This document shows positions 2,406 to 63,207 of a DNA stretch of 64,000 nt, one piece after another (position 1 is the stretch's first letter; each line of letters starts with the position of its first letter). This DNA is from Dehalococcoidia bacterium. Its GTDB lineage: Bacteria > Chloroflexota > Dehalococcoidia > Lucifugimonadales > UBA3495. A program made the translations under genes and the position numbers. Below the pieces are notes generated by a model. That model did not search any database, was not told the origin of the DNA, and saw only the letters and a program-made list of their open reading frames with translations. The stretch spans positions 1,865,826 through 1,929,825 of the forward strand of contig OZ253670.1 in NCBI GenBank assembly GCA_965263395.1, given 5' to 3'.

Positions 2406-4160
2406 ATGAGGATTGAAACCATGACTCCAAGAGATTTCATGACCATGCTCTGGGGGGACCCTCCCCCCGCATCCGTCTACCTCTTCCTCCTGCCCCAGAA
2501 GCGGGCAATCTGGTTCACACACTACGAGAACCTGGACAAATTGTGCAACGCCCACACCGCCATGGAAATCTACACCGGCGGGGGGACCGGGCCCAGGAGC
2601 AACCGGCAGGCCCTCCCCAACCGGCGCCTCCTGCAGGATGAGGTAACCGGCATCACCGGACTCTGGTCCGACATCGACGTGGCCCACGATGTACACCCGA
2701 AGAAGAACCTGCCCCCGACCCTGGAGGCAGCCCTGGAGATCCTGGAGCAGGCCCAGTTCGAGCCCACCATCCTGGTGGACAGCGGCCACGGCATCCAGGC
2801 CTGGTGGCTCTTCGATGAGCCCTGGAATTTCCAGGACACCCAGGAGAGCATGGAAGCCCGGCGCCTCACCCAATGGTGGGGGGGGTACATCGGCTCCCTG
2901 TATGCCGCCGAGGGCTGGAACATCGACTCGGTATACAACCTGGACCGAATCATGCGGGTCCCAGGGACCTTCAACAACAAGGTGAAGAACGACTCGAAGC
3001 CCGTAACGGTCATCCGGAACACCGGCATCCGCTACTCCCGGACGGCCTTCCAAGAACTCATCCCGCCGGACTACCAGCCCAAGACCATCATCAAGGGCAC
3101 CAATGCCGACGGGCAGCCGGTGGGAGCCGAGAACCTGATCCTGGACCCCAAGGCCGAGCCGGACATAATGAAATTCGGTGAGCTCATCGCCGAGGACCCC
3201 CGGTTCCTCCGGAGCTGGCAGGAAAACCGCACCGACTGGGCAGAGGAGGCCGACCGGTCCGCCAGCGCCTACGACCTCTCCCTGGCCAGCTTCGCAGCCA
3301 GAAACGGCTGGAGCGACCAGGAGATCTCCGACCTGCTCATCGCCAAGCGGCGCCGCCACGGGCAGGACCTGAAGCTCAGGGAGAACTACTACGCCAACAC
3401 CATCGCCCGGGCCCGCCATCCAGTGACCGTTGCTCACGCGGAGGAGAGCCTGAAGGAGGCGATGGAGATGGATGAAGAGGACAGCTCCGACGACATCATG
3501 AACGCCCTCAGCATAATGATGGGGATCAGGATCCGAAGGATAGTCAAGTTCATCGGGGACCCGCCCATATTCTGGATGTCCACCGACCAAGGCGATATCA
3601 CCATCGGCAAGGTCGATGGCCTCACCTCCCAGAACCGGTTCATCAACCTGGTGGCCGGCATAACCGGGATCGTCATGCAGCCCTGCAAGTCCGCCCAATG
3701 GCGGGAACGGGTCCAGGCCATTCTCCGCGCCGCGGTCGAAGAGGACGTGGGGGACGCCAGCCATCCGGCCACCGAGACCCGGGCCTGGCTGACCACCTAC
3801 CTTTCGGAACACGCCCCCCTGATCAACATATCCCAGGCCACCATCACCCGAATGCCCTTCATCAGCAACGGCCGGGTCCACATGTTCCTGGAAAGGTTCA
3901 GCCAGTGGGTGGAGCACAGCTGCCACGAGGTGATCAGCACCTTCTCAATGGGCCAGCGGCTGAAGCTGCTCGGGGCCAAGCAGGAGACCATCAACACCAC
4001 CATCAACGGGATCCGCACCACCCGGTCAACCTGGCGGCTCCCCCACGATTTCGATGAATGGGAGCAGATGGCCCAGGAGGAGATGCAAGAGGATATCCAA
4101 GAGGATATCCAAGAGGATATCCAAGAGGATATGCAGGAAGAAGGGGAAGGCAGAGAATGA
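2406..4160 (+). CDS. archaeo-eukaryotic-type primase-polymerase (prim-pol) with C-terminal domain
   Basis: AEP motifs are present: WSDIDV (DxD), SGHGIQAWWLF (sGxGxH-like) and RVPGTFNNK. An alternative start is ATG 2421, which has a GAGGA upstream. The C-terminus carries a QEDI repeat. Confidence 0.8.
   Translation: MRIETMTPRDFMTMLWGDPPPASVYLFLLPQKRAIWFTHYENLDKLCNAHTAMEIYTGGGTGPRSNRQALPNRRLLQDEVTGITGLWSDIDVAHDVHPKKNLPPTLEAALEILEQAQFEPTILVDSGHGIQAWWLFDEPWNFQDTQESMEARRLTQWWGGYIGSLYAAEGWNIDSVYNLDRIMRVPGTFNNKVKNDSKPVTVIRNTGIRYSRTAFQELIPPDYQPKTIIKGTNADGQPVGAENLILDPKAEPDIMKFGELIAEDPRFLRSWQENRTDWAEEADRSASAYDLSLASFAARNGWSDQEISDLLIAKRRRHGQDLKLRENYYANTIARARHPVTVAHAEESLKEAMEMDEEDSSDDIMNALSIMMGIRIRRIVKFIGDPPIFWMSTDQGDITIGKVDGLTSQNRFINLVAGITGIVMQPCKSAQWRERVQAILRAAVEEDVGDASHPATETRAWLTTYLSEHAPLINISQATITRMPFISNGRVHMFLERFSQWVEHSCHEVISTFSMGQRLKLLGAKQETINTTINGIRTTRSTWRLPHDFDEWEQMAQEEMQEDIQEDIQEDIQEDMQEEGEGRE
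4077..4136 (+). repeat. 12-nt tandem repeat gaggatatccaa (3 perfect copies plus 2 variants), in frame
   Basis: Read directly from the sequence. It encodes QEDIQEDIQEDIQEDMQEE at the primase C-terminus. Confidence 0.9.
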
Positions 4161-5848
4161 CCACAACCACCGGGGAGAAGGAGACCCGTCAACCCGGAAG
4201 GCCAGAGGAAGGACTGCCGGAGATCGAGTACCGGGTGATCGGACCTCCCGGCTGTGGCAAGACCACATGGCTGGGCCAGCAGGTCGAAAATGCGGTGGAG
4301 AAGGGCCAGCGGATCCTGATAACATCCCAGACCAGAGCCGCCGCCGCCGAGATAACCGGGCGGCGGCTCCCCATCCCGGACGAGTGCCTGGGAACCCTCC
4401 ATTCGCACTGCTACCACATCCTGGGCAAGCCTGAACTCACCCTGAACCACCTGGAGGAATGGAACAGCGAGAACCCCGCCTTCGCTATCACCATCACCAA
4501 GGGAAATGAGACCCAGCGCCGGATCGAGGGAGATAACCCGGATGCCCAGATAATCCAGACCCCCGGCGACCAGCTCATGGCGGACTACTCAATGGTCCGC
4601 TCCCGGATGGGAGAGGCCTTCAGCAGGATGGCAGAGGCCTCCAACCAGACGGGAGAGGCATCCAGCCTGGTGCAGCAGTTCGGGAGCACCTGGGAGGAGT
4701 GGAAGCAGAAGAACGCCCTCATGGACTTCCAGGACCTAATCGAGATCTGCCTCCGGGAGACCAGCGCCGCACCCGGCAACCCCGACATCATATTCGTGGA
4801 CGAGGCCCAGGACCTGGACTACACCGAGATGAAGCTCATCCGGAAATGGGGGGCCCAGGCCGGCTACCTCATCACCGTGGGAGACCCGGAACAGTGCATC
4901 TACAGCTGGCGGGGCGCCACCCCGGAGGCCTTCATCACTCCCGAACTTCCCCCGGCCCAGAACATGGTCTTGAGCCAGAGCTACCGGGTGCCGCTGGACA
5001 TCCACAACCGGGCCATCTCATGGATCAGCAAGATAGATGGCCGGGACCCAATCCCCTACTACCCCCGGGACCACCCGGGGAAGGTCCGGGAGACCCCCAG
5101 TACCTGGGAGGAGCCCAAGGACGCGGTATCCATCGCCCAGGAACACACGGATGAAGGAAAGTCCGTCATGTTCCTGACCACCTGCGCCTACATGCTCCAG
5201 AACGTCATCAACGAGCTCCGGCAACGCTCAATCCCCTACCACAACCCCTTCCGCCGGAACAACGGCGCCTGGAACCCCCTGGCCAAAAGGGGCAACGCCA
5301 TCACCACCGGGGAACGGATACTGGCCTTCCTCGCACTATCCCAGAATGGGCTGTGGACCGCCCAGGACATCAGGCGCTGGTCCGACGCCCTCACCCTCAG
5401 GAAGCACCTATCCCCGGGTGGACGGAAGGAGATCAAAAGCCTGGTCAACACCCAGGACGGCGGGGTCAGCGCCTACATGATGGAGCGGCTCTTCAGCGAG
5501 GAGCTTCTGAAAGCCGGCCTCACCGGAGACCTGGATTTCTTCCAGGAACACCTGACCGCCGCCAAGCGGGACACCGCCAAGTTTCCCCTGAGCATCGCCA
5601 TGGCCTATGGGCCAAAAGCCCTGGAGGAGCCGCCCAGGACGACCGTTGGCACAATTCACTCCGTCAAGGGAGGCGAGGCCGACGTCGTGGTCATCTTCCC
5701 CGACCTGAGCATGGCCGGCAACAAGGAGTGGGCCGGGACCATCGAACAGCGGGCCGGTATCATCCGGCTCTTCTACGTCGGCATCACCCGATCACGGGAG
5801 ACCCTGGTATTCTGCAGGCCCGCAGGCCGGAACTTCGTGGAGTTCTGA
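4157..5848 (+). CDS. UvrD/Rep/PcrA-like superfamily 1 helicase
   Basis: Motifs GPPGCGKTT (Walker A), FVDEAQD, SQSYRVP and GTIHSVKGGEADVV are present. ATG 4157 overlaps the primase stop (ATGA). The track ORF starts at 4058, but that extension reads the repeat out of frame. Confidence 0.85.
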   Translation: MTTTTGEKETRQPGRPEEGLPEIEYRVIGPPGCGKTTWLGQQVENAVEKGQRILITSQTRAAAAEITGRRLPIPDECLGTLHSHCYHILGKPELTLNHLEEWNSENPAFAITITKGNETQRRIEGDNPDAQIIQTPGDQLMADYSMVRSRMGEAFSRMAEASNQTGEASSLVQQFGSTWEEWKQKNALMDFQDLIEICLRETSAAPGNPDIIFVDEAQDLDYTEMKLIRKWGAQAGYLITVGDPEQCIYSWRGATPEAFITPELPPAQNMVLSQSYRVPLDIHNRAISWISKIDGRDPIPYYPRDHPGKVRETPSTWEEPKDAVSIAQEHTDEGKSVMFLTTCAYMLQNVINELRQRSIPYHNPFRRNNGAWNPLAKRGNAITTGERILAFLALSQNGLWTAQDIRRWSDALTLRKHLSPGGRKEIKSLVNTQDGGVSAYMMERLFSEELLKAGLTGDLDFFQEHLTAAKRDTAKFPLSIAMAYGPKALEEPPRTTVGTIHSVKGGEADVVVIFPDLSMAGNKEWAGTIEQRAGIIRLFYVGITRSRETLVFCRPAGRNFVEF

Positions 5849-6107
5849 CGCTCTCCGCCCGGGTTCGTGGCGCCGGAGCACCGCTTCACAACCGGCCTGG
5901 GGCCCAGGCTTGCCGGTTTCCTGGTCACAGAACCCCGCCGCCAGGAGCGGGAAAAGACAAAACCCCAAGGGGAAGGGGTCCAACATAATCCCCATGTAAA
6001 ACAGGCCCAAGCCAACCATGGAGAGGATGGCAGGCAGGGGCCGGAACCAGAAACCCGGAGGATGGCCTGGAACCAGCGGGGCAACACCGGAAAAGAGGAG
6101 TCGGAAA

Positions 6108-9100
6108 ATGGAGAACGAGGAGCGGAGCAGGAGGATAACCCGGGCCCTCCTGAATTCGGGGATAGCCCGGGAGAACCAGGAGAGCATCCCAAACATCACC
6201 CCCAACGCCAAAACGGTGCTGGAGAGGCGCTACCTGAAGAAGGACCAGGACGGAGCCGCCGAGGCGCCGGACACCATGTTCCGGAGAGTGGCCGAGAACC
6301 TGTCGCAGGCGGACCTGAACTACGGGGCAACCCAGAAGGAGCGGCAGGCCACCGAAGACGAGTTCTTCGACGTCATGCAGAAGCTGGAGCTCCTGCCCAA
6401 CTCACCCACTCTCATGAACGCCGGCCGGGAGCTGCAGCAGCTCTCCGCCTGCTTCGTGCTGCCCATCGACGACGACCTGGACGACATATTCTCCAAGGTC
6501 AAGGAGACCGCCCTCATCCACAAGAGCGGCGGCGGAACCGGGTTCTCCTTCAACCGCCTCCGTCCCAGCGGGGACTTCGTGAAGTCCACCGGCGGCATCG
6601 CCTCCGGGCCCGCCAGCTTCATTCGCGCCTTCGACTCCGCAACCGATGTGGTCAAGCAGGGCGGCACCCGCCGGGGCGCAAACATGGGGATCCTGAACGT
6701 CGACCATCCCGATGTGATGAAGTTCATACGCATGAAGGCCCAGGAGGGGGCGCTTGAGAACTTCAACATCTCCATTGCTGTAAACAAGGAGTTCATGGAA
6801 AAGGTCACCCGGGGGGAGGACTACACCCTCACCAACCCCCGGACCGGGGAGGCAGCCGGCACCCTGAACGCCCGGGAGGTCTTCACCGAGATCGTGGAGC
6901 ACGCCTGGAATACCGGGGACCCCGGGCTCATATTTCTGGACCGGATCAACGAGCAGAACCCCAACCCCCACCTGGGAATGATCGAGTCCACCAACCCCTG
7001 CGTGACCGGGGACACCTGGGTGATGACCCGGGAAGGGCCCCGGCAGGCCCGAAGCCTGGCCGGCAGCCGGCAGACACTCCTGGTCAACGGGGAATTCTTC
7101 CTGACCGGGCCGGAGGGATTCTTCTCCACCGGGATCAAGCCGGTCGTGCGGCTCCGCACCCAGGAGGGCCAGGAGTTGACCCTGACCCAGGACCACCTGG
7201 TGGTCAAGATCATACGCCAGCCCCACGGCAGCGTGGGAATCAGGGCCTGGGCGCCGGCGGGAGAGCTCCGCCCCGGAGACCGGGTGGCGCTGCACGACCA
7301 CCGGTTGGCCCACCGGAAGGGCAACAGCATCCTGCCCATGAGCAGGATCAGCCAGCCGGTGCTGGAGTCTCTCAGAACAACCTTCCAGCCCCGGAACATC
7401 GTCATGGACCCCCGGGAAACATGCCCCTCCATATCGCTGAAGGAACAGGCGCACGGCATGCTGGAGACCGCACAGCGGGAGCTCCTCTACCTGGGAATAC
7501 AGAGCAGGATCCAGGTTACTGCCGGACCGGGAGACCGGGAACTGGTCATCCAGGGTGAATCCCTGGAACGGCTGGCCATCAGGGTCGGGTCGGCCAACCC
7601 GGAGGAACAGCATATCCTTGGAGAGATGGCCCTCCTGGCCAAGGATGCGCCAGGATACCCTGGCCGCGAGACCTACGAGGCAACCGTGGAATCCCTGGAA
7701 CCAGCCGGAGAGGAAGAGGTGTGGGACGTCCAGGTCCCGGGAGTCAATGCCTTCGACGCCAACGGGATCTACGTGCACAACTGCGGCGAGCAGGTACTCG
7801 CTCCCTACGAGTCCTGCAACCTGGGGTCCATCAACCTGGCCCGCATGGTCAGGTTCACCGACCGGGCCGAAATCGACTGGGAAAAGATGGAACGGGTCAT
7901 CCGGACCGGCGTTCACATGCTCGACAACGTGATCGACATGAACGACTACCCCCTGCCGCAGATCGAGGAGGCCAGCAAGAAGAGCAGGCGCATCGGCCTG
8001 GGAGTGATGGGAACCGCGGACTTCCTCATCCAGATGGGGATACGCTATGACTCTGAAGAGGCCCTCAACCTGGCCGGGGAGGTGATGTCCTTCATCCAGA
8101 AACAGGCCCACCAGGCCTCCCACGACCTGATCGGGAACCGGGGGCCCTACCCGGGATTCGAGGGCAGCACCTATACCCGTCCCATGCGGAACACCGCACC
8201 AATCACCATCGCCCCCACCGGCACCATCAGCATCATCGCCGGCGCCTCCAGCGGCATTGAACCCCTCTTCGCCCTTGCCTATACGAGGAACATCATGGAC
8301 CAGACCCGGATGCGGGAGATCAATCCCTACTTCCAGGCAGTGGCCAACAGTATGGACGAGATGGACGAAGAGTTCATGGAAGAGCTCCTGGAGCAGGTTG
8401 CCCAGACCGGAAGCCTGGCGGGGACCAGCGCCCCGGACTGGATGAAGGAGATCTTCCGGGTCTCCCAGGACATCAGCCCGGAGTGGCACGTCCGGATGCA
8501 GGCGGCCTTTCAGGAGCACACCGACAACTCCGTCTCGAAGACGATCAACTTCCCCAACGCCGCCACCCGGGAGGATATCTGGAAAGCCTACATGCTGGCC
8601 CATGAGACCGGCTGCAAGGGCATAACGGTCTACCGCGACGGCAGCAAGGCCGAGCAGGTGTTGAGCACCGGCCAGACCCAGGCATTGAGCGCCGGCCAGA
8701 CCCAGGCGTTGAGCGCCGGCCAAGCCGATCTCCACACGAACGGAAAGCACCCCACCCCCCGGCCCAGGCCCCGCACAATGACGGGCTCAACCAGGAGGGT
8801 CAGGACCGGCCACGGCAACATGTACATCACCATCAACCGGGATGAGGACGGGGAACCCTTCGAGATCTTCAATGCCGTCGGCAAGGCCGGGGGCTGCGAC
8901 TCGGCCCAGATCGAGGCCATCAGCCGGCTGGTCTCCATGGCGCTCCGCTCCAACCTGGACCCCCAGGAGATATCCCGTCAGCTCTACGGCATAACCTGCT
9001 GCCCCGCCTGGGACGAGGGAGTGCTGATCCGCTCCATCCCCGACGGGATCGCCATCGCCCTGAGCGGGAACTGGAAATCCCCGGAGCAGGATGCAGGAGC

Positions 9101-9227
9101 CAGCCACGAGGACATCCTCCTCATGAACGGCCGGCAGAAATGCCCGGACTGCAACTCACCCACCCACTTCCAGGAAGGCTGTCAGGCCTGCACCAACCTG
9201 GTCTGCGGCTGGAACCGGTGCAGCTAG
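6108..9227 (+). CDS. nrdJ: class II (adenosylcobalamin-dependent) ribonucleotide reductase, intein-containing
   Basis: The N-terminus reads TPNAKTVLERRYLKKD. The active-site motif STNPC...GEQ is split by an intein. The C-terminal Cys cluster is CPDC...CQAC...C. GAGGAG lies 8 nt upstream of ATG 6108 (track start is 6018). Confidence 0.9.
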   Translation: MENEERSRRITRALLNSGIARENQESIPNITPNAKTVLERRYLKKDQDGAAEAPDTMFRRVAENLSQADLNYGATQKERQATEDEFFDVMQKLELLPNSPTLMNAGRELQQLSACFVLPIDDDLDDIFSKVKETALIHKSGGGTGFSFNRLRPSGDFVKSTGGIASGPASFIRAFDSATDVVKQGGTRRGANMGILNVDHPDVMKFIRMKAQEGALENFNISIAVNKEFMEKVTRGEDYTLTNPRTGEAAGTLNAREVFTEIVEHAWNTGDPGLIFLDRINEQNPNPHLGMIESTNPCVTGDTWVMTREGPRQARSLAGSRQTLLVNGEFFLTGPEGFFSTGIKPVVRLRTQEGQELTLTQDHLVVKIIRQPHGSVGIRAWAPAGELRPGDRVALHDHRLAHRKGNSILPMSRISQPVLESLRTTFQPRNIVMDPRETCPSISLKEQAHGMLETAQRELLYLGIQSRIQVTAGPGDRELVIQGESLERLAIRVGSANPEEQHILGEMALLAKDAPGYPGRETYEATVESLEPAGEEEVWDVQVPGVNAFDANGIYVHNCGEQVLAPYESCNLGSINLARMVRFTDRAEIDWEKMERVIRTGVHMLDNVIDMNDYPLPQIEEASKKSRRIGLGVMGTADFLIQMGIRYDSEEALNLAGEVMSFIQKQAHQASHDLIGNRGPYPGFEGSTYTRPMRNTAPITIAPTGTISIIAGASSGIEPLFALAYTRNIMDQTRMREINPYFQAVANSMDEMDEEFMEELLEQVAQTGSLAGTSAPDWMKEIFRVSQDISPEWHVRMQAAFQEHTDNSVSKTINFPNAATREDIWKAYMLAHETGCKGITVYRDGSKAEQVLSTGQTQALSAGQTQALSAGQADLHTNGKHPTPRPRPRTMTGSTRRVRTGHGNMYITINRDEDGEPFEIFNAVGKAGGCDSAQIEAISRLVSMALRSNLDPQEISRQLYGITCCPAWDEGVLIRSIPDGIAIALSGNWKSPEQDAGASHEDILLMNGRQKCPDCNSPTHFQEGCQACTNLVCGWNRCS
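6999..7781 (+). other. intein (261 codons) inserted in the NPC/GEQ catalytic motif of NrdJ
   Basis: The intein starts with Cys (CVTGDTWV). Block B is LTLTQDHLV. It ends ...GIYVHN and is followed by the extein Cys of CGEQ. The central LLYLGIQSRI...LERLAIRVG segment looks like a degenerate LAGLIDADG half-domain. Confidence 0.85.
8661..8726 (+). repeat. 24-nt tandem repeat (about 2.7 copies), in frame within nrdJ
   Basis: The unit ttgagcRccggccagacccaggcR encodes LSTGQTQA LSAGQTQA LSAGQA. Confidence 0.9.
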
Positions 9228-15483: not shown

Positions 15484-16650
15484 ATGAAAGTCAAATGCCT
15501 CCAGGGAAACCTGAGCCACGGGTTGGCCATGGCCAACCAGATCATCAACGCCAGAACCACCATGCCCATCACCCAGAACGTCCTCATGGTCGCCATCGAC
15601 GGCGCCGTCAAGATGCAGGCCACCAACCTGCAGACCTCCCTGACCACCTGGGTGCCGGCCGACGTGGAGGAGGCCGGCGGGATAACCGTCCCCCTGAAGC
15701 TCCTCCACGAGTTCGTATCAACCCTCCCCAATGATGTGGTGGAGCTCCGGGTACCCCAGGATGACCCGGACGACGGCAGCCTGCTGGTCCTGAAGTGCCT
15801 CCGGAACAAGGCCCACATAAACGGGACCATGACGGACCAGTTCCCGCCGATACCCGAGGTCGAGAAGGAGAGCAGCCTGGCCGTGAAGGCCAGCGAGTTC
15901 AGCACCGCCATCGCACGGACCGAGTTCTGCGCCGCCAAGGAGGACAACCGCCCGGTCCTGACCGGGGTGAACATCCGATTCCAGGAAGAGGGGTTCATCA
16001 TGGCCGCCGCGGACGGCTTCCGCCTGGCAGTGCAGGAGGGCAGCCTGGAGAACCCGGTGGAAGACCCCTTCGAGATCAACCTGCCCGCCAACTTCCTGAA
16101 GCGGCTCAGGGCCATCCAGGGAGACAGCGAGGAGCCGGTCCACATCCATATGCCCCAGAACCGGAAACAGGCGCTGTTCCAGTTCATCGCCGCCGCCCAC
16201 GGGGAGTTCCGGGTGGAGATGACCACCCTTCTCCTGGAGGGAGAATACCCCAGCTACCAGGATCTCATACCCGAAAGCTCCTCGGCCAAGGCCGTGGTGG
16301 AAAGCGGAAGCCTGATGCAGGCCGTGCGCAGCACCTCCCTCTTCACCAAGAACAACTTCAACAAGATAACTCTACAGATGGATGCAGATGGGGACGAGGG
16401 CAAGCCCACCACCACCATCTACGGAGAGGGTGAGGAGACCGGCAACAGCCGGGCCGTGGTGGAGATGGAGGAGATGGAGGGCCCACCGGTGCAGATCTCC
16501 TTCAACCACCAGTACCTGAAGGACATCCTGAACATCACCGACAAGTGCAAGATCCGGATGGAGACCAACAGCGACCGGGCCCCGGGAGTGTTCCGGCTCG
16601 TGGACTCCGACCTCTACACCCACGTGATAATGCCCATCATGCCCGCCTGA
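15484..16650 (+). CDS. dnaN: DNA polymerase III beta sliding clamp
   Basis: 388 aa with a typical DnaN N-terminus (MKVKCLQGNLSHGLAMANQII...TMPITQNVLM) and three-domain length. Confidence 0.9.
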   Translation: MKVKCLQGNLSHGLAMANQIINARTTMPITQNVLMVAIDGAVKMQATNLQTSLTTWVPADVEEAGGITVPLKLLHEFVSTLPNDVVELRVPQDDPDDGSLLVLKCLRNKAHINGTMTDQFPPIPEVEKESSLAVKASEFSTAIARTEFCAAKEDNRPVLTGVNIRFQEEGFIMAAADGFRLAVQEGSLENPVEDPFEINLPANFLKRLRAIQGDSEEPVHIHMPQNRKQALFQFIAAAHGEFRVEMTTLLLEGEYPSYQDLIPESSSAKAVVESGSLMQAVRSTSLFTKNNFNKITLQMDADGDEGKPTTTIYGEGEETGNSRAVVEMEEMEGPPVQISFNHQYLKDILNITDKCKIRMETNSDRAPGVFRLVDSDLYTHVIMPIMPA

Positions 16651-16666: not shown

Positions 16667-17188
16667 ATGCCGGCCCAGACCAGCGAGAAGCAGTTCCAGT
16701 CAACCATCATCCAGGCCATCCAGGCCAGGAACTGCCTCGTCTTCCACATACACGACTCCCGGCGCCAGATACGCACCCCGGAGGGAGCCATGCACTGGGT
16801 CGGCGACCAGCAGGCCAGGGGATACCCGGACCTCACCATCATACGGAGAAACCCCCTCCCGATCTGGATTCCAATGGACCAGAAAGCATTCTGGGCCGAG
16901 CTCAAACGGGAGGGCCAGAACCCCAACGAGAACCAGGTCCAGTACCTGGAAGAACTCCCCCCTCACCGGGCATTTCTCTGGAGGCCCCATGACTTCGATG
17001 ACGCCGACCGGATTATCCAGAACGGCCACCCCACCGACGGACGGAAGTGCCCGACCTGCTGGACCTGCTGGGGCGCCGAGCTCCTCATCCGGAAGGGAAG
17101 AGGAAAACAGAGCCCCAAGCAGGTCAGCTTCATTGAAAGACCCCGGACCCAGCGGCTGGAACAAGTCCAGCCGCCCCCCGGCACATGA
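16667..17188 (+). CDS. VRR-NUC domain nuclease
   Basis: A PD-(D/E)XK-like core is present: GYPDLTII ... AELKREGQNPNENQVQYLE. Confidence 0.75.
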   Translation: MPAQTSEKQFQSTIIQAIQARNCLVFHIHDSRRQIRTPEGAMHWVGDQQARGYPDLTIIRRNPLPIWIPMDQKAFWAELKREGQNPNENQVQYLEELPPHRAFLWRPHDFDDADRIIQNGHPTDGRKCPTCWTCWGAELLIRKGRGKQSPKQVSFIERPRTQRLEQVQPPPGT

Positions 17189-17230
17189 CCAGCAGCAGAA
17201 CCCCAGCAGCAGAACCCCATCAAACTAAAA

Positions 17231-17626
17231 ATGGACCATCGGACAATCATGCAAGAAACCATGCAAGAAACCAACATCAGGAACTACACAGCGAGAGCCC
17301 AGAGGGTCTACCAAGACCAGCTGGCCGAATACACCCTCCTATCGGTGGAGGCCACCAGCCCGGAACATGCCGGGGAGAGCGTGAAAAATTGGTGCCGGAA
17401 GATGAACCAACTGGACCAGGACTGGGAAACCAACCCGGGCCAGCCCCCCATCCAGATGGTGGCCGACTCCATATCGGAGGTCATGCCCCTTTCCACAGAA
17501 CCCGGAACCCACACCGCCTGGGTCAACCCCGGCTCAGCACAATGCTGCGTCATAACCGTGCTCAGGTCAGGGCTGACCAGGTATCCCCAAATCGACGGCG
17601 AAGAACAAGATGACCAGCAAAACTGA
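17231..17626 (+). CDS. hypothetical protein
   Basis: 131-aa ORF. It contains a 12-nt duplication at 17248-17271 (MQETMQET). Confidence 0.5.
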   Translation: MDHRTIMQETMQETNIRNYTARAQRVYQDQLAEYTLLSVEATSPEHAGESVKNWCRKMNQLDQDWETNPGQPPIQMVADSISEVMPLSTEPGTHTAWVNPGSAQCCVITVLRSGLTRYPQIDGEEQDDQQN

Positions 17627-17795: not shown

Positions 17796-18080
17796 ATGGC
17801 AGGAACAGTGAACCAGGTCATCCTCATGGGACGGCTCGGCAACGACCCGGAGATACGCTACACCCAGGGAGGAACCGCCCTGGCCAACGCCAGGATGGCC
17901 ACCGACCGGTACCGGGCCGGGCAGGATCCCCAGACCGGCTGGCACACCATAGCCGCCTGGGGGAAGGCCGCCGAGATCCTGGCCGAACGCGCCCACAAGG
18001 GGGACCTGGTCCACATCGTGGGAAGAATCGTCAACAATTCCTGGACCGGTGACGACGGCCAGAAACGGGAACGCACCTAG
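17796..18080 (+). CDS. ssb: single-stranded DNA-binding protein, OB-fold part ending at an in-frame amber codon
   Basis: The sequence MAGTVNQVILMGRLGNDPEIRYTQGGTALANARMAT...WHTIAAWGKAAE...GDLVHIVGRI is a typical SSB. AAGGAG precedes the start. TAG at 18078-18080. Confidence 0.85.
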   Translation: MAGTVNQVILMGRLGNDPEIRYTQGGTALANARMATDRYRAGQDPQTGWHTIAAWGKAAEILAERAHKGDLVHIVGRIVNNSWTGDDGQKRERT

Positions 18081-31080: not shown

Positions 31081-31083
31081 GCC

Positions 31084-47980: not shown

Positions 47981-48018
47981 CTGGAAACTCCTCTCTGCCG
48001 CAGCACCAACGCTGCTCC

Positions 48019-48402
48019 TTAAAACAGGCTGGGGCGATTGTGGACATAATCCACACAACCCCGCTTTGAACGTGAGACCCCCAGCACAGCATAAACCCGG
48101 CCAGAACCCCACCGGGATGCCGAATCATCCGGAGGCAAGAGATCCGGCGGCGCTGGAGGCGCAGGCGGAACCGGGACCGAATCCACAGGGGCGCTACCCT
48201 CCTCCAAAACCCCGTCCGAGCCATCCGGAGCAACCTCATCCACAACCTCCGGCACCTCAACAACCAGGGGCACACCGTAATCGCCGAACTCCACCAGGAG
48301 AATCACCCGGGTCAGCCCCGACGGGTCATCCTGCTCAATCACCGAACGGACCTGAACCAGCTGGAAATCATCCACCCCCACCAAGATCAAGAGGCCCCTC
48401 AC
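48019..48402 (-). CDS. ORF that probably is the frameshifted C-terminal part of the upstream lipoprotein gene
   Basis: It overlaps 48368..49216 by 35 nt in another frame around a C5/G5 run at 48375-48379. The protein-like segment VDDFQLVQVRSVIEQDDPSGLTRVILLVEFGDYG is present. Confidence 0.35.
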   Translation of the reverse strand: MRGLLILVGVDDFQLVQVRSVIEQDDPSGLTRVILLVEFGDYGVPLVVEVPEVVDEVAPDGSDGVLEEGSAPVDSVPVPPAPPAPPDLLPPDDSASRWGSGRVYAVLGVSRSKRGCVDYVHNRPSLF

Positions 48403-49216
48403 CCAGATCCAACAGGTCGGGGCGAGCCACTATCCGGTGGGCCAGACCCCCGGGAAGCTGGTCAATCCCCTCATGCTCCAAATCCTGCAAGAACTCATCC
48501 TCCAGGAGAAGATCAGGCCCAAAGACAGCCTCATACAGGCCGTCTTCCACATCATCCCCACGGCCCCAAAGGCCTGTCAGAGGGTCCCGGATATAGAGAT
48601 CAGTCCCAATCTGAATGATCTCTATCTCCATGCTGAAACCACCGAATCCCACCGTCATCAAGGCACGCTGACGATCCGGAGCCACCACCTCGCCCTCCAC
48701 ACCAACGATGCCAGCATCAACGATATCAGCATCACCGAACTCGGCCCCAAGTCCATCCGCGGTGATGGTCATCACATAGCGGTAGGAACCCGCATCTTCC
48801 ATCCCCAAAAACGCATCACCCAGGATGGCCCGGGCATCCCAGCCGCCTGGAGGAGGCTCGGGAACCTGATCATCAGGAACCTGATCATCAGGGTCATCCG
48901 GCGACAGGGTGGCTGAAAGCGCCGGAACAACAGCCGGCTCGGGATCCAGAGCCAGCACCAGAGTGGGCGAAGGCGCCGGTGATGGGACAGGTCCCATCAC
49001 CTCAACCGGATCACCGGAGGAAAACACGGTCACGGGTTCACCCAACTCCCCAGGGGTCTGGGATGGAAATTCTGAAGAAGGCTCAGCCGGGGACATGGGA
49101 ACTCCAGCCCCAGGAGATTCAGGACTCTCCCCGATATCACCAGTCAAAACCTCCGGACTGCTGCTGCAGGCAGCAAGCAGAAAAAGCATGGGAACCAGCA
49201 GGACAAAAAACCTCAT
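48368..49216 (-). CDS. lipoprotein (signal peptide with LLAAC lipobox), Pro/Glu/Ser-rich linker
   Basis: The N-terminus is MRFFVLLVPMLFLLAACSSS. A 15-nt in-frame duplication at 48861-48890 gives PDDQVPDDQV. Confidence 0.65.
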   Translation of the reverse strand: MRFFVLLVPMLFLLAACSSSPEVLTGDIGESPESPGAGVPMSPAEPSSEFPSQTPGELGEPVTVFSSGDPVEVMGPVPSPAPSPTLVLALDPEPAVVPALSATLSPDDPDDQVPDDQVPEPPPGGWDARAILGDAFLGMEDAGSYRYVMTITADGLGAEFGDADIVDAGIVGVEGEVVAPDRQRALMTVGFGGFSMEIEIIQIGTDLYIRDPLTGLWGRGDDVEDGLYEAVFGPDLLLEDEFLQDLEHEGIDQLPGGLAHRIVARPDLLDLGEGPLDLGGGG

Positions 49217-50886: not shown

Positions 50887-50981
50887 GGAAATGTCGTGGC
50901 TCAGGGCCCTGACCGAATCCCTCCAGGACCGGACATCAGACCTCAGATCTCAGGGAAAGAGTCCGGGACCGCAACCAAGAG

Positions 50982-51284
50982 ATGCGGGAACGAGCACAGG
51001 ACCGGACCACCCGGCGCCAGAAGCAAGAGAGGAGAATCACGAAGACCCCGGGCACAGTCCTGTTCAACACCGCCATCTGCATCGGAATCCTGTACCTCTT
51101 CGGGCTCAATACCGGTCTGGCCCTCATCCGGGACGCAGGCCAGACCGGGAACGCCCTCCAGTCATGGATCGGGCTCGGGATGATCGCATGCCCCCTGCCC
51201 ATATTCATTGGAACAGCCCTGCTCGCTCTGAAGCTCAAACCCAACGCCGGCCTGCCAGGAAGAACAACCGGAGGAACGACATGA
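50982..51284 (+). CDS. membrane protein (the gene probably begins at ATG 50891 and is frameshifted)
   Basis: The TM helices are VLFNTAICIGILYLFGL and IGLGMIACPLPIFIGTALLAL. See the finding on the 7-nt repeat at 50936-50956. Confidence 0.5.
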   Translation: MRERAQDRTTRRQKQERRITKTPGTVLFNTAICIGILYLFGLNTGLALIRDAGQTGNALQSWIGLGMIACPLPIFIGTALLALKLKPNAGLPGRTTGGTT

Positions 51285-51934
51285 CCCACTACCAAACCCT
51301 GGGACTGGACCCCACCGCCAGCCCCGCCGAGATCGCCCTCGCCTACCAGGACCGGGCCGGCCGGATGACCCCCGAAATCCAGCGCGCCTTCCAGATCCTC
51401 TCCAGCCCCAAACTCAGGGATGAGTATGACCACGCCCTGAAACAGCCGGGCCGGACCCAAGGGTACCGCCCCATCAGACGGATGGCCCACAAGGACTGGA
51501 AGAAGTGGCGCACAGGCGAACTCATCAGCTCACTCGCGGTCCTCAAACCGCTTGCAGCCATCATCTCCATGGCCATCCTCATCCTTACCCCCGCCTACCT
51601 CTCCGGCTCCATGGCCTTCCAACTCCGGGACGCCGGCAACGAGGCACTCCTGCAGGGAGACCTGTACACCGCCCTCCAGAAGCACGAGCGGGCCGCGGCC
51701 ATCAACCACCTGGACCCCGGCTACCGGAGCGACCTCGCCCGCACCTACCTGGCCCTGAACCGGCACGCCGACGCCATCACCCAGTACACCCAGGCCCTGG
51801 AGATGGACCCCGAACACCCCCCATCCCTCACGGGACGCGCTCAGGTATGGGAGGCCATCGGAAATAAAGACATGGCCGAGCAGGATATACAGGCCGCGGC
51901 ACGGCTGGGCATCACCATGGAGGAAAACAAATGA
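51281..51934 (+). CDS. degenerate J-like domain, TM segment and TPR repeats
   Basis: HYQTLGLDPTASPAEIALAYQDRA has no HPD motif. The TM segment is LAAIISMAILILTPAYL. TPR-like segments follow (YTALQKHERAAAINHLDP...). ATGA overlap at 51281. Confidence 0.6.
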   Translation: MTHYQTLGLDPTASPAEIALAYQDRAGRMTPEIQRAFQILSSPKLRDEYDHALKQPGRTQGYRPIRRMAHKDWKKWRTGELISSLAVLKPLAAIISMAILILTPAYLSGSMAFQLRDAGNEALLQGDLYTALQKHERAAAINHLDPGYRSDLARTYLALNRHADAITQYTQALEMDPEHPPSLTGRAQVWEAIGNKDMAEQDIQAAARLGITMEENK

Positions 51935-55724: not shown

Positions 55725-56935
55725 TAGTACCGTTTCCAGAAAGTCTTACAATCATAAGGGAGATCAGGTAGGCTTGAGTAAAATCCTTTAGTGAGGCCGT
55801 ACCTGACATGCCTGTCTCCAAATACAAAGTCGAACTGACCCAATCCGAACGCTCCGCTCTGATTGAAACATCCGGCCGTGGCAAGCCGTTAGCCCGCACG
55901 GTAAAGCGGGCCCTTGCGCTGTTGAAAGCTGACGAAGGACTCTCAGACCGTGAGGCGGCTGAGGCGGTTTCGATCAGCGCCGCCACTGTTGCCAGAGTGC
56001 GCAGACGGTTCGCCGAGGAGGGAGTGGAAGCCGCAATCAACGACCGGCCACGGTCAGGCCGGGGGCGCAAGCTGAACGGCAGACAGGAGGCGCACCTCGT
56101 CGCCATCACGTGCAGCAATGCGCCCGAAGGACACGCGCACTGGACGCTCCAGCTACTTGCTGACCAGGTGGTGGCGATGGAGTTTGCCGGGAGCATCTCC
56201 CTGGAGACGGTGCGCCAGATACTCAAAAAAACGAACTCAAACCATGGAAGAAGAAAGAGTGGTGCATCCCCAAGGTGAGCGGGGAGTTCGTGGCCCGGAT
56301 GGAGGATGTCCTGGACCTGTACCACGAAGACTACGACCCAGAGCGTCCCGTGGTGTGTTTCGACGAGACCTCCAAGCAGTTGATCGAGGACGTGAGGCCG
56401 CCCATCAAGGCCAAGCCCGGACGGGTGGAACGCTATGACACCGAGTACCAGCGAAACGGGACCCGGAACCTGTTCATGTTCTGTGAGCCGAAGGGAGGAT
56501 GGAGACACGTCGAAGTGACCGGGCGCCGCACTGCTGTGGACTTCGCTCACCAGATGAAGTGGCTGGTGGACGAGGCATATCCTGACGCCACAGTGATCAG
56601 GCTGGTGTTGGACAATCTCAATACCCACAAGCTGGGCTCGCTCTACGAAGCATTTGGAGCGTCCGAAGCGCGTCGTATAGCCAAGCGCCTGGAGTTTCAC
56701 CACACTCCCACCCATGGAAGCTGGCTGAACATGGCCGAGATCGAGTTGAGCGTCTTCAGCAGACAGTGTCTGAACCGCCGGGTCGGCGATGAAGCGCTGC
56801 TGAGACGGGAGGTCGCCGCGCTCGAACGCGAGCGCAACGATGCTGGCGCCGTCATAGACTGGCGGTTCTCCACTCAGGATGCCCGCAGTAAACTCCAACA
56901 TATCTATCCATCAGGATTAAATTGAAACGGTACTA
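55725..56935 (+). mobile_element. IS630-family insertion sequence flanked by a TA duplication in a CTAG target
   Basis: The terminal inverted repeats are gtaccgtttc (55727-55736) and gaaacggtac (56924-56933). TA lies on both sides, and the reconstructed target is cCTAGa. Codon usage differs from the surrounding genes. Confidence 0.85.
55808..56925 (+). CDS. IS630-family DDE transposase, two ORFs joined by a -1 frameshift on an A7 run
   Basis: OrfA is 55808..56278 (HTH) and orfB frame runs to 56925. The A7 run is at 56225-56231. A shift to -1 restores the family hallmark LKKNELKPWKKKEWCIP. The D..D..E region reads VCFDE...LVLDNLNTH...SWLNMAEIE. Confidence 0.8.
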
Positions 56936-60140: not shown

Positions 60141-60923
60141 ATGGTGAATGAGACCACCAGAAAGATGATGACCGGCCAGCTCGCAGAGCTGAGAGAGAAA
60201 GAGAAAGCAGCCACCGGGCTGGCAGAATACTTCCAGAACCAGATACTGAAACGGGAGTATTCATTGAGCCAGCTGGGAATCCCGATCCCCGATCACAACG
60301 ACAATCATCCCCGAAACCCTGAGGGGGAAACACCCCGAACCACCGGCGAAGAGACAGCCAGCCGGGAAGCCGGGAACCAGGAAGCCGAGAACCAGGAAGC
60401 CGAGAACCAGGAAGCCGAGAACCGGGAAGTCGAGAACCAGGAAGTCGAGAACCGAACCGCCACGGCAACGCCGGAGCCAAACGGTACCAAAACAAACTAC
60501 GCTCATGTCCCCGGACACCGGATGCAACAGCTACGCTACATGAACGGCGACGACATGACAGGGGCGGAGCTCCGGGAACTCGAACTCATGGAACAGCTCC
60601 AGGCCTGCCCCAACCAGAGCAGCATGATGCGAACCATCGCCGCCAGGACGGGTGACCGGAGCCAGGAAAGCTACCGGATACAGATCAGCAGCGCAGCCAT
60701 CCACATCATCGGCGCAGGACTGACCAAGATGGTGGACGCCAGGAACCTGGGAAACCACCTCCGGTACAGCATCCTGTCCAAAGACGCAGACCACTGGATC
60801 GTGGCGAGCAACAAGAACGATGCCCAGTTCTTCCCCGAAGGGAAACCCGTCACGGACGATTCCCCTCCGGTGGAACCCAGGGACAACCACCAGCCCCCTC
60901 ACAACGGCATGATGAACCTGTGA
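60141..60923 (+). CDS. unknown-function protein, paralog of 49557..50252
   Basis: AAAGGAGGAG lies upstream. The conserved C-terminus reads ACPNQSSMMRTIAARTG...YRIQISSAAIHIIGAG...ARNLGNHLRY...SNKNDAQFFP. Confidence 0.6.
   Translation: MVNETTRKMMTGQLAELREKEKAATGLAEYFQNQILKREYSLSQLGIPIPDHNDNHPRNPEGETPRTTGEETASREAGNQEAENQEAENQEAENREVENQEVENRTATATPEPNGTKTNYAHVPGHRMQQLRYMNGDDMTGAELRELELMEQLQACPNQSSMMRTIAARTGDRSQESYRIQISSAAIHIIGAGLTKMVDARNLGNHLRYSILSKDADHWIVASNKNDAQFFPEGKPVTDDSPPVEPRDNHQPPHNGMMNL
60366..60455 (+). repeat. 15-nt tandem repeat gaagccgagaaccag, 6 copies (variants)
   Basis: It encodes EAGNQEAENQEAENQEAENREVENQEVEN and is absent from the paralog at 49557. Confidence 0.9.
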
Positions 60924-61080: not shown

Positions 61081-62414
61081 GGCTGACAGGGGTATGTATG
61101 GACTGAAATTGGTCTGAGGGCTTGGAAAGCGCACGGGAATCCGGCATCTTGGTTGCAATGACGAAACCGGATGCCGGAGGTTTCCCATGCGCCTTCCCAA
61201 GGAATGCTGCCAGATGCAGCAGGTCATTGAAACGCATTTGCCTCACCTCAGCCGGTCACAATTGGCCGGGCTGGTCTTGTGGGTGTGCGGGACTATCCTG
61301 GCCGGGAGCGCCTGCCAGAATGCCGTCGCCGCCGCTCTCTCCACCAAGGGAAACTGGGACAATCTGCGGCAGCGCCTTCGGGAATGGCTCTACGACGGCG
61401 GCGACCGGGCGCGTCCCTGCCAGACCGAACTGGATGTGAGTCTCTGCTTCGCGCCGTTGCTCAGGTGGGTCCTTGCGTGGTGGTGTTCTGACCGGCTGGC
61501 CTTGGCGGTTGACCCGACGTTGAAAGGGGACGACACCACCGCCATCGTCATCAGCGTGGTCTACCGGGGTTGCGCGATTCCCGTGGCCTGGCGCATCCTG
61601 CACGCCAACAAACCTGGGGCCTGGATGGACCCGATAGTGGAACTGTTGCAGGCGCTGGCCCCGGCGGTCCCAGAAGACATGACCGTGATTGTGCTGTGCG
61701 ACCGGGGCCTGGCCAGTCCGAAATTGTGGAAACAGATACTCGCTCAGGGCTGGCATCCCTACATGAGGTATCCGAAAAACGTCACTTTCTGCGCTGAGGG
61801 CGGTCGGCGGCTGCCCGCGCGCGCCTTCGTTCCCCGTCCGGATACCGCGTGGATCGGGAGCGGGACGGCGTTCAGCAAGGCAACAGTAAAACGCCGTTGC
61901 ACCCTGCTGGCGGTCTGGTACGTTGAACAGGAGGAGCCGTGGATCATCCTGACCGACCTTCCGCCGGACGAAGTTGGGGTGAGTTGGTACGCGCTCCGCT
62001 TCTGGATCGAGTTGGGGTTTAAGGCGGTCAAGAGCTTGGGTTGGCAATGGCAAAAGACCCGCAGGACTGACCCGGCGCGGATTTCGCGGCATTGGTTCGT
62101 GTTGTCGGTGGCGACGCTGCTGACCCTGGCCTACGGGACCAGGGTGGAAGACGCCTATGACCGGAGGCTGGCCCCCGGCAGCTTGCGAGCGCCGCCCAGG
62201 GCGCTGGCGCCCACTCACCGCAGTAGCCGGGAGAAGCCGGGACGGACCGTCAGCGTAATCCGTTACGGCATTGCCTGGCTGAGGTGGTTGCTGCACCGGG
62301 GCCGGTTCTGGAGCCGGGTATGGCTGCTGCCCGAACCCTGGCCTGAACCCAAGTCCGACCTGGAGGTCACCCGCCATGCCCCTACATGAAACCCTATACA
62401 TACCCCTGTCAGCC
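61081..62414 (+). mobile_element. IS4-family (YREK-type DDE) insertion sequence with 19-bp perfect terminal inverted repeats and a target-site duplication
   Basis: The left IR is ggctgacaggggtatgtat (61081-61099) and the right IR is atacatacccctgtcagcc (62396-62414). The flanking direct repeat taatcct is at 61074-61080 and 62415-62421. It extends to cctaatcctgg if the outer 2 nt of each IR are counted as duplication. Confidence 0.85.
61187..62389 (+). CDS. IS4-family DDE transposase
   Basis: LAVDPT, VLCDRG and YALRFWIELGFKAVK match Y-x2-R-x3-E-x6-K. Codon usage is unlike that of the neighbouring genes. Confidence 0.85.
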   Translation: MRLPKECCQMQQVIETHLPHLSRSQLAGLVLWVCGTILAGSACQNAVAAALSTKGNWDNLRQRLREWLYDGGDRARPCQTELDVSLCFAPLLRWVLAWWCSDRLALAVDPTLKGDDTTAIVISVVYRGCAIPVAWRILHANKPGAWMDPIVELLQALAPAVPEDMTVIVLCDRGLASPKLWKQILAQGWHPYMRYPKNVTFCAEGGRRLPARAFVPRPDTAWIGSGTAFSKATVKRRCTLLAVWYVEQEEPWIILTDLPPDEVGVSWYALRFWIELGFKAVKSLGWQWQKTRRTDPARISRHWFVLSVATLLTLAYGTRVEDAYDRRLAPGSLRAPPRALAPTHRSSREKPGRTVSVIRYGIAWLRWLLHRGRFWSRVWLLPEPWPEPKSDLEVTRHAPT

Positions 62415-62635: not shown

Positions 62636-62644
62636 GCAACCGGA

Positions 62645-62914
62645 ATGGGCAAGAAGACAACCACAATGAACCAGGAACCACCCAGGAAACTCCAGTTCTC
62701 ATCGGAGTTCATCCAGGACCTCCGGGAACGCCTGGACCAGAGACGCCGGGACCAAGCAGCCAGGCCAACCGGCCCGGAACCGTCCCCGCCAATCTGCGGC
62801 GAGATCTACGAGGAAGCCCTCCGCACCATGGCGCTGGAGGAAGGGCTTCCAAAACAATGCTGGGACTTCGACAACCTCCCCGGCCCCATCCCGGTTACAT
62901 TCAGACCAGCATGA
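62645..62914 (+). CDS. hypothetical protein
   Basis: 89-aa ORF. Confidence 0.45.
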   Translation: MGKKTTTMNQEPPRKLQFSSEFIQDLRERLDQRRRDQAARPTGPEPSPPICGEIYEEALRTMALEEGLPKQCWDFDNLPGPIPVTFRPA

Positions 62915-63207
62915 AAACGGGAGAAGAATACAAATACCGGTGCGACTGCCCCAACTGCCCCTGCAACATACCCAAGAAAGAACGGGCCGGCCGTCAGTGC
63001 CCAGAATGCATGACCGGAAACTGCATGGAATGGCGGACCGCAAAACGCAAGGACGAACAGAAAAATGAGCCAGAAAGAACCCAGGCCGTCAATGGCCCCT
63101 CTGGAGCCAGCCTCCCCGTAGTTGTCCCCGTAGTTGTCCCAGCAGTTGTCTCAGGAGAGAACCCAGGGAGAAGAAATGATGCTCGGGAAGCAATGGAAAC
63201 CGGGTAA
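62911..63207 (+). CDS. Cys-rich small protein (CDCPNCPC...CPEC..C)
   Basis: ATGA overlap at 62911. The 12-nt repeat at 63115-63150 gives PVVVPVVVPAVV. Confidence 0.5.
   Translation: MKTGEEYKYRCDCPNCPCNIPKKERAGRQCPECMTGNCMEWRTAKRKDEQKNEPERTQAVNGPSGASLPVVVPVVVPAVVSGENPGRRNDAREAMETG

Follow-up and report, generated by a model that had tools for sequence, protein, structure and literature searches.

Dense perfect tandem repeats in an integrated phage-like element of Dehalococcoidia

Perfect tandem repeats spread across whole genomes have been reported for Borgs and mini-Borgs (Schoelmerich et al. 2023, PMC9879509; bioRxiv 10.64898/2026.05.22.727314). Ten Borg genomes contain 460 repeat regions, which make up 0.62% of a Borg genome as compared with at most 0.01% of the host genomes (PMC9879509); from the same counts we estimate ~0.06 arrays per kb. 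Borgs are also reported to code on one strand, with an excess of A over T on that strand. To date, pervasive in-frame perfect repeats have been treated as a hallmark of the Borgs and mini-Borgs of methane-oxidizing archaea; a full-text search of the literature returned the pattern for these elements only, and for no bacterial element. Here, we characterize tandem repeats in a 64,000-nucleotide stretch of a Dehalococcoidia genome (GenBank assembly GCA_965263395.1, contig OZ253670.1, positions 1,865,826–1,929,825 of the forward strand), hereafter the window, which covers part of an integrated phage-like element.

Tandem repeats of variable copy number are also familiar from contingency loci, where units of 1–9 nt change in number by slipped-strand mispairing and thereby switch a few specific genes on or off by frameshift. 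The repeats of the window resemble contingency loci and variable-number tandem repeats in that copy number changes by slippage and is polymorphic between close strains. They differ from contingency loci in having unique units of 9–24 nt and frame-preserving survivors, and in being scattered over dozens of unrelated genes and spacers. A phase-variable contingency locus was rejected on the grounds that arrays within genes keep the frame, the only frameshifting case being a 7-nt duplication in a Band_7 gene of relatives. Two further candidates were set aside: a CRISPR array, because all repeats are head-to-tail and lack spacers, and a diversity-generating retroelement, because domain scans of the ~70 window proteins (Pfam or PHROGs) contain no reverse transcriptase and the repeats are tandem and identical.

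The closer comparison is with Borgs. As proposed in a preliminary description of this DNA, the repeats are Borg-like, and in five of six features tested: they are (i) pervasive and perfect, (ii) built of units whose length is a multiple of three within open reading frames (ORFs), (iii) unique to their locus and accompanied by partial copies, (iv) A-rich and T-poor, and (v) subject to rapid turnover; for the sixth, disorder of the repeat peptides, composition scales show a weak overall trend that is clear in the longest arrays. The two kinds of element are also alike in coding on almost one strand only, in the hydrophilic nature of the repeat peptides, and in copy-number variation between close variants. 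Applying the Borg paper's own criteria (perfect arrays, at least 50 nt long, at least three units) to the window leaves three arrays with 0.29% of the bases, approximately half of the Borg figure of 0.62%. Counted in this way, arrays number 0.047 per kb in the window, 0.05 per kb in its clade and ~0.06 per kb in Borgs. The contrast with background is smaller (5–10 fold here versus at least 60 fold for Borg over host), and arrays are shorter than in Borgs, mostly with two to three copies of 9–24-nt units. The carriers differ as well. The host is bacterial (Dehalococcoidia) rather than archaeal (Methanoperedens), and the GC content of the window is 62% versus ~33% in Borgs. Where Borgs are linear with long terminal inverted repeats, the present element sits in a chromosome and has a tyrosine integrase and a CI-like repressor. 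Finally, its replication genes are of bacterial or phage type and, unlike in Borgs, no PolB was seen in the window scans. GC content, chromosomal integration and the replication genes led us to reject a Borg or mini-Borg identity, Borg backbone genes not having been explicitly searched; no sequence relationship to Borgs emerged, none having been sought beyond this comparison.

Repeat density against chance and other DNA

Perfect arrays were counted with an exact-repeat scan (period 4–60 nt, at least two copies, at least 20 nt). The window contains 24 such arrays, 14 of which are ≥30 nt and six ≥40 nt in length; most arrays consist of two to three copies only. Tandem Repeats Finder (TRF) returned 79 rows at a score of ≥30 and 30 arrays at a score of ≥50, with match identities spanning 100% down to 72%. 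The preliminary description had listed more than 20 repeat loci, and all 21 of those listed hold the repeat, the unit and—within genes—the peptide attributed to them.

These counts are far above chance. When codons are shuffled inside genes and single bases in the spacers, 0.29 ± 0.52 arrays per window result, and a third-order Markov model gives 0.38; arrays of ≥40 nt, six of which are observed, are absent from both. Repeat density thus does not match that of shuffled controls. Since real genomes always lie above shuffles, real DNA was measured with the identical scan (~2 Mb of phage, prophage and bacterial DNA in total). The density of the window is 3.75 arrays per 10 kb (2.19 for arrays ≥30 nt). 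By comparison, mycobacteriophage Bxz1 (50 kb, GC 65%) has 0.4 per 10 kb, Caulobacter phage phiCbK (50 kb, GC 66%) has no perfect array, 74 IMG/VR viral loci (1.18 Mb) have 0.85 per 10 kb (0.28 for ≥30 nt), and unrelated GTDB loci (0.54 Mb) have 0.63 per 10 kb. The excess over real DNA is therefore 5–10 fold, with 4–5 arrays expected versus 24 observed (Poisson P = 1e-8 to 1e-11).

No unit is common to two window loci, and no motif is common to the units; GAACC and CAGGAA-type words are weakly enriched (3–5 fold, in ≤15% of units), and CCWGG/CCGG is not (0.42 versus 0.34 ± 0.05). In base composition, units are richer in A (34.2% versus 24.7% for the window) and poorer in T (7.9% versus 12.9%), with A reaching 33% in units inside genes and 41% in those outside. 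Unit length peaks at 15 nt in genes and at 13–16 nt outside, and declines above ~18–25 nt. The partial copy that closes an array is on average 4.1 nt long in the window and 3.3 nt long in relatives, as compared with ~0.4 nt calculated from chance extension; such long partial copies fit with microhomology where the duplications end. Terminal microhomology is lacking from some duplications.

Repeats are concentrated in small hypothetical ORFs and spacers. Nine of the 18 in-gene arrays lie ≤45 nt from a gene end, where 3.8 are expected (P = 0.004). The repeat peptides are more hydrophilic than the remainder of their proteins (P = 0.024). Disorder propensity on the TOP-IDP scale, which reflects composition only, is higher in 11 of 18 arrays (P = 0.08), and the longest arrays score high on it (PESHE 0.61, PDHEP 0.62). 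Some arrays duplicate translation signals, an observation of the preliminary description that we can confirm: one copies AAGGAGG, ATG and TGA together (31052–31084), another a start codon (44067–44095).

Two details of that description required correction. Firstly, the PDDQV array at 48861 is real, but its assignment to the minus strand is doubtful, the + strand ORF having the more coding-like GC content at third codon positions (GC3). Secondly, a 7-nt unit at 50936–50956 had been tied to a frameshift; what follows downstream is two separate genes with overlapping stop and start, for a small membrane protein and a DnaJ/TPR protein, and no frameshift is present. This weak repeat probably lies outside the phenomenon.

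Reading frame, age and distribution of the repeats

Unit length is divisible by three in all 18 window arrays that lie inside genes, and in three of the five that lie at gene ends or between genes. Our own gene calls could make this test circular, so it was repeated on relatives with the independent gene calls of the database. There, the rule is obeyed by 20 out of 23 in-gene arrays, the ORFs of the three exceptions being short and doubtful, and by 6 of 21 arrays outside genes or on their edges. Window and relatives together give 38/41 inside versus 9/26 outside (Fisher P = 6e-7), which bears out the multiple-of-three rule of the preliminary description. Outside genes, approximately one unit in three has a length that is a multiple of three, and no period is preferred, indicating that the generator is frame-blind and that selection does the filtering. 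A frameshifting polymorphism lends support to frame-blind origin followed by purging: two sister prophages (L001, ~18871; L143, ~18453) carry a GCCCGAG duplication of 7 nt that a third (L144) lacks, and the Band_7 (SPFH) product measures 311 aa with the duplication as compared with 364 aa in its absence. The variant appears to be deleterious.

The repeats are young. The nearest relative (L056 and L140, contigs of 2x coverage) covers ~25 kb of the window with DNA that is 82–91% identical, and eight of nine window repeats checked are single-copy, absent or replaced in it. The eight are EME in DnaN and those beginning at 17189, 17248, 18148, 19426, 36198, 43556 and 44067. EME, for instance, is not repeated in the 85%-identical DnaN of L056, (PESHE)×8 is absent from the SSB of both L056 and a further relative (L058), and the spacer homologous to the 17189 site has a different 16-nt repeat. 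The linker repeat of the class II ribonucleotide reductase (RNR) NrdJ is a single copy in L001 and L002, and the primase tail carries QEDI ×4 in the window, TTPEE/PEESV in a sister lineage and no repeat in nine other homologues.

Four sister prophages that occupy one integration site and are locally near-identical differ from each other by whole units. Their primases measure 586 and 591 aa, the sole difference being one extra TTPEE unit. Three sister variants show length differences of 9 and 18 nt at a 9-nt unit of the SNF2 gene, and of one to two units at a 12-nt intergenic unit; two contigs of a single sample are two copies apart at a 14-nt spacer unit. Copy numbers are therefore not identical among relatives, a polymorphism seen in sister lineages of the clade rather than in the window's own population.

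Within the family, only the window's own clade is rich in tandem repeats. Densities per 10 kb are 3.8 for the window, 3.1 for ctg362194, 4.0 for contig_6, 6.1 for ctg58371 (six arrays by the Borg criteria, 0.98% of bases), 7.2 for ctg358674 and 1.2 for the low-coverage nearest relative. The clade total is 96 arrays in 221 kb, or 4.4 per 10 kb; for arrays ≥30 nt the figure is 2.8, versus a baseline of 0.28. The five lineages of the clade have almost no individual repeats in common. Hence, a high rate of repeat birth is inherited by the clade and the individual repeats are not, suggesting a persistent cause rather than a single burst. Together, the repeats missing from the 82–91% identical relative, the polymorphism among sisters, and a repeat-rich clade with unshared repeats agree with the active repeat-generating process that had been postulated, although an active process need not imply a dedicated machine.

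Two further observations concern the relatives. Long intergenic arrays occur in ctg58371: 13 nt ×10.5 just upstream of the first SNF2 helicase gene (L002 2999–3135), 14 nt ×9.4 (L002 18239–18369) and 14 nt ×5.1 (L139 21119–21189), all of which could be regulatory or origin-type repeats. Separately, the primase of ctg358674 (P0364) is annotated with a 30-aa N-terminal extension containing a PERSE repeat; P0003 (579 aa) does not have the extension and is otherwise identical bar one residue.

The carrier element and its strand asymmetry

The window's own helicase (P0241) is recorded on a single contig of 4,724,373 bp, which shows that the element is integrated and not extrachromosomal. Primases 62–68% identical to that of the window are found on long-read contigs in ENA. 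In one of these relatives a tyrosine integrase and a CI-like HTH/S24 repressor, by host dehydrogenase genes, directly precede the same gene order; the integrase, with an HTH and Peptidase_S24 repressor, marks the left border beside host dehydrogenase genes in L001, L143, L144 and L145. More distant primases (36–47% identical) occur in the chromosomes of Dehalococcoidia metagenome-assembled genomes (MAGs) and in IMG/VR viral contigs, and the closest cellular DnaN proteins with a source name are labelled Chloroflexi or Dehalococcoidia. From the chromosomal contig and the relatives that carry integrase and repressor, we take the window to be one half, with the replication and accessory genes, of a large element that is temperate and phage-like. 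It is a member of a family of such elements in Dehalococcoidia that bear an integrase and a repressor. By analogy with a relative contig of 133 kb, the whole element probably exceeds 100 kb; the window begins ~5 kb inside it. Most likely, the element is a temperate phage of a Dehalococcoidia (Chloroflexota) bacterium; its phage identity is probable, with a conjugative or other integrative element as the lesser possibility.

Genes read in the standard code fill 84% of the window and lie almost wholly on the + strand, an AIM24-family gene being one of very few exceptions. In addition to the genes of Table 1, the domain scans recognize a DUF7307 'Pam3 gp33-like' protein, UvrD, two SPFH/Band_7 proteins, DUF5131, DnaN, SSB, UDG, two Fic proteins, orphan methyltransferases, a second SNF2/ResIII helicase and a NAD-dependent LigA. 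DnaN, LigA, the SPFH/Band_7 proteins, UvrD, the class II RNR, SSB and UDG confirm the preliminary description of a high-GC element with bacterial-type replication genes. The N-terminal domain of the primase matches the PHROG 'DNA polymerase/primase' families and mycobacteriophage primase/polymerase genes. The element thus resembles the PrimPol-helicase temperate phages in its primase domain, its DUF7307 protein and, in relatives, the integrase and S24 repressor at the border. It is unlike temperate tailed phages in that no virion gene is found in 64 kb or in the readable loci of relatives, and in that phage records give no nucleotide match. Specifically, the 64 kb contain no capsid, portal, terminase, tail, lysis or conjugation gene (which says little about the element as a whole, since it extends beyond the window), the readable loci of relatives no capsid, tail, terminase or lysis gene, and 24 kb of the window have no nucleotide match among 50,697 phage records. 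Sequence searches of the PDB with four large proteins, either unknown or primases, and tRNA and Rfam scans of the window, returned no match.

Relatives differ in gene content at several places. An intein interrupts the class II RNR (LAGLIDADG in relatives) in one sister prophage and not in another from the same sample (L146 583–3630 versus L147 1887–4950). A prokaryotic ubiquitin-like system (Prok_Ub, Prok-E2, Prok-JAB, ThiF) is present in relatives (L142 1–3694, L146 18187–21167, L058 20198–20713), and the window retains the DUF6166 protein from its neighbourhood.

Table 1. Tandem repeats and selected genes of the window (unit length × copies; percentages are match identities)
Feature	Position	Strand	Location and remarks
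Carrier element	1-64000	+	replication and accessory region of integrated phage-like element
12 nt ×2.0, perfect	557-580	+	in SNF2-helicase C-terminal gene
12 nt ×5, QEDI	4073-4132	+	perfect core 4086-4132; C-terminal tail of PrimPol-like primase
24 nt ×2.8 (90%), LS(T/A)GQTQA	8655-8722	+	barrel-TSCPD linker of class II RNR
9 nt ×2.7, EME	16457-16480	+	DnaN
9 nt ×2.2	16708-16727	+	sole checked window repeat common to a near relative (L056, L057)
14 nt ×2.2, perfect	17189-17219	+	intergenic
12 nt ×2.2, MQET	17248-17273	+	single copy in L056
15 nt ×8.1, (PESHE)×8	18148-18268	+	SSB linker, ahead of acidic tip DIPF
9 nt ×6.6, QSY	18988-19046	+	C-terminus of Fic/DOC protein
15 nt ×2.7, EKYRQ	19426-19466	+	single copy in L056
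15 nt ×2.0, NGQQQ	22716-22745	+	DnaJ-domain protein
9 nt ×3.7	24930-24962	+	intergenic
16 nt ×2.6 (92%)	25202-25243	+	intergenic
15 nt ×2.6 (83%)	26388-26426	+	start codon duplicated (MDQND MDQNN)
15 nt ×2.7	26655-26695	+	across stop codon of 26389-26667
9 nt ×2.3, EHP	29054-29074	+	DUF6166 protein
14 nt ×2.4, perfect	31052-31084	+	gene junction; translation signals duplicated; stop codon of 30650-31066 in first copy
15 nt ×2.5, TRDRK	31306-31342	+	
12 nt ×2.4, ARRQ	31547-31575	+	
15 nt ×3.8, PDHEP	32296-32352	+	ends 4 nt ahead of stop codon of 31886-32356
13 nt ×2.5 (95%)	36198-36230	+	intergenic, upstream of SNF2/ResIII helicase; single copy in L140
15 nt ×2.1, VREPG	43556-43587	+	absent in L140
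15 nt ×1.9	44067-44095	+	duplicated start codon of 44075-44788; exactly one copy in L140
12 nt ×2.8	47225-47258	+	between convergent 47067-47234 (+) and AIM24 gene (minus)
15 nt ×2.1, perfect	48861-48892	open	in frame on both strands
7 nt ×3.1 (86%), weak	50932-50953	+	spacer; TRF score 30
15 nt ×5.9 (94%), E(A/V)ENQ	60365-60453	+	perfect core 60374-60423; 260-aa protein
12 nt ×3.2, PVVV	63113-63150	+	lone hydrophobic repeat
SNF2-helicase C-terminal gene	2-763	+	
PrimPol-like primase	2406-4160	+	
Class II RNR (NrdJ) with intein	6108-9227		Intein_splicing domain
Fic/DOC protein	18320-19072	+	
Cas4-domain (PD-(D/E)XK) exonuclease	23715-24761		phrog_1990, E = 5e-25; in replication region
DUF6166 protein	28749-29285		
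PfkB-family kinase, two same-frame ORFs	46163-47023		TAA at 46592-46594 between them
AIM24-family gene	47288-48112	minus	Pfam E = 2e-62
Small membrane protein	50982-51284		
DnaJ/TPR protein	51281-51934		
IS transposases DDE_3 and DDE_Tnp_1	56275-56925 and 61187-62389		

The two strands of the element are strongly unequal in composition. The + strand of the window is 24.7% A, 12.9% T, 33.7% C and 28.7% G. At four-fold degenerate sites of + strand genes the asymmetry is larger (A 13.0% versus T 3.1%, C 54.7% versus G 29.1%; AT4 skew +0.61, GC4 skew −0.30), a magnitude far above that of usual bacterial replication skews. Minus-strand genes of the element show the mirror image: the AIM24 gene of the window, that of L142 (20843–21532; minus-strand in this relative also) and the integrase and repressor of relatives (L001 2809–5010). 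The + strand is therefore A- and C-rich whatever the direction of transcription. Genes of the host flanks lack the asymmetry, as do the two insertion sequence (IS) transposases, whose host-like composition suggests that they are probably recent insertions.

In vertebrate mitochondria (heavy and light strands) and in bacteria (leading and lagging strands), asymmetry of this type is shaped by single-strand exposure. The element is like such genomes in having one G+T-rich and one A+C-rich strand at four-fold sites irrespective of gene direction, and unlike them in being an integrated bacterial element whose flanking host genes do not share the asymmetry. The pattern suggests that the minus strand is single-stranded for longer during replication of the element, undergoing C-to-T and A-to-G deamination, and hence an asymmetric mode of replication.

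Two genes of the window are interrupted by nonsense codons: the PfkB-family kinase by TAA, and the SSB by an in-frame TAG (18078–18080) at the conserved end of the OB fold (..KRERT*IHTNSIVPLG..). The 85%-identical relative has GAG (Glu) at this position, and either a nonsense mutation or an error in the base call probably accounts for the TAG. Recoding of TAG was rejected as an explanation for SSB: read-through after TAG looks coding-like in 3 of 24 cases as compared with 6 of 50 for TGA, the relative has GAG, and the standard code already accounts for genes over 84% of the window.

Origin of the repeats

In this clade, duplications of ~9–25 nt arise unusually often, anywhere, and without regard to frame. 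We consider it probable that they result from high-rate tandem duplication by slippage or microhomology during replication of the element, filtered by selection. The duplications would come from slipped-strand mispairing, or from template switching at microhomologies, during copying or repair of the element, and the element's own replication and recombination machinery may be behind the raised rate. Candidate components are the PrimPol-type primase, the UvrD and SNF2 helicases, SSB, the element's own beta clamp, the Cas4-like exonuclease and LigA. Once two copies are present, slippage would add or remove whole units, a step that is visible as polymorphism among the sister prophages. Selection, the filtering effect of which is seen in the frame rule, would purge duplications that shift the frame or fall within folded domains. 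The survivors would be in-frame, hydrophilic, A-rich units at termini and in linkers, and units of any length between genes. Arrays would then decay by point mutation, such that the perfect ones represent only the youngest layer; TRF matches ranging from 100% to 72% fit with steady birth and decay of this kind. The Cas4-domain exonuclease is, in its own right, a candidate part of a recombination system and may contribute to template switching.

Several observations weigh against this reading. Among the ~70 window proteins, no polymerase and no slippage-raising enzyme was found. The low-coverage nearest relative (L056 and L140) has just 1.2 arrays per 10 kb, and distant family members (L004–L011) with the same replication module and skew have ~0.5; module and skew are thus insufficient for high density. 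Between L001 and L143, 503 substitutions stand against 2–4 unit changes. The two interrupted genes and two IS insertions mean that some relaxation of selection may contribute. Finally, the case for an element-specific process rests on the flanks of relatives and on other genomes, rather than on the window's own host chromosome.

The most serious competitor is that slippage proceeds at its ordinary rate and that repeats merely persist, through prophage decay or weak selection. The interrupted SSB and PfkB genes, the IS transposases, the accumulation of repeats in small hypothetical ORFs and spacers, and the preponderance of substitutions over repeat changes between sister prophages are what such persistence would produce. 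We nevertheless think it unlikely: the frame rule (38/41 versus 9/26) shows that selection is still active on most genes, prophages of the same family are 6–10 times poorer in repeats, and no fewer than four independent lineages have a high density, some of them with an intact SSB. Less likely again is that the repeats are kept because they are useful, as disordered tails and linkers in proteins and, between genes, in start tuning or as regulatory or origin repeats, as has been proposed for Borgs. Independent repeats do occur at the same sites across lineages (the primase tail; the spacer after the 16667 gene), the SSB linker repeat is found in the window only, the longer arrays have high disorder propensity, some repeats duplicate a Shine-Dalgarno sequence and start codon, and ctg58371 carries its long intergenic arrays. 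Yet recurrence at the same site is equally expected wherever insertions are tolerated, almost no repeat is conserved across lineages, the disorder trend over all arrays is weak, and most arrays stop at two to three copies. A function of individual arrays, such as longer disordered tails or duplicated start signals, is possible without being needed.

A dedicated repeat-making activity—a staggered-cut nuclease with fill-in, an integrase-like enzyme or a reverse transcriptase—would account for the narrow range of unit sizes (mode 15 nt in genes, 13–16 nt outside), for duplications without terminal microhomology and for the weak enrichment of GAACC and CAGGAA-type words. We regard it as improbable, given that the domain scans reveal no reverse transcriptase, Cas1-like or transposase-like gene bar two ordinary IS transposases, that units share no motif, and that both the scarcity of longer units and the prevalence of microhomology are in keeping with slippage. 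Least credible of all is an origin in chance, low complexity, or assembly and sequencing artefact. The T-poor strand does lift chance repeats slightly, and the relatives were assembled from long-read metagenomes, in some cases at 2x coverage. The calculated 5-mer match probability rises just ~1.2 fold through the skew, however, and shuffling with composition and codons preserved yields 0.3 arrays versus 24. As a cause, composition is further discounted by family members with equal skew at baseline density, and by the lack of correlation between density and skew or GC across 128 loci. An artefact cannot give rise to the frame rule; moreover, the same repeats appear in independent assemblies with whole-unit differences, and comparable long-read loci from Dehalococcoidia MAGs are at baseline density.

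A further proposal is more speculative. Tentatively, and with more doubt than confidence, Borgs and this clade may share a cause: replication in which one of the strands stays single-stranded for long, such as by strand displacement or rolling circle, would drive both the skew and the slippage or template switching. On the same doubtful footing, the clade may display the whole of a 'Borg syndrome', namely one-strand coding, transcription-independent asymmetry of A over T and C over G, and sustained repeat birth. Skew alone does not predict repeat density, as the baseline values of L004–L011 show. If the proposal is true, Borg-type repeats would be a by-product of replication style rather than an archaeal curiosity, and the mechanism would be testable in bacteria.

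Neither archaeal PolB replication nor low GC content nor giant size is a requirement for the phenomenon. Since repeat-rich and repeat-poor members of the family share a replication module, the responsible factor is mappable by comparison, and the repeats go together with a measurable, strand-specific signature of mutation, a hint as to the mode of replication. Copy number differs between co-occurring variants, making the arrays strain markers and likely trouble spots for assembly in soil and groundwater metagenomes. The element offers a bacterial system in which to study how such repeats arise.

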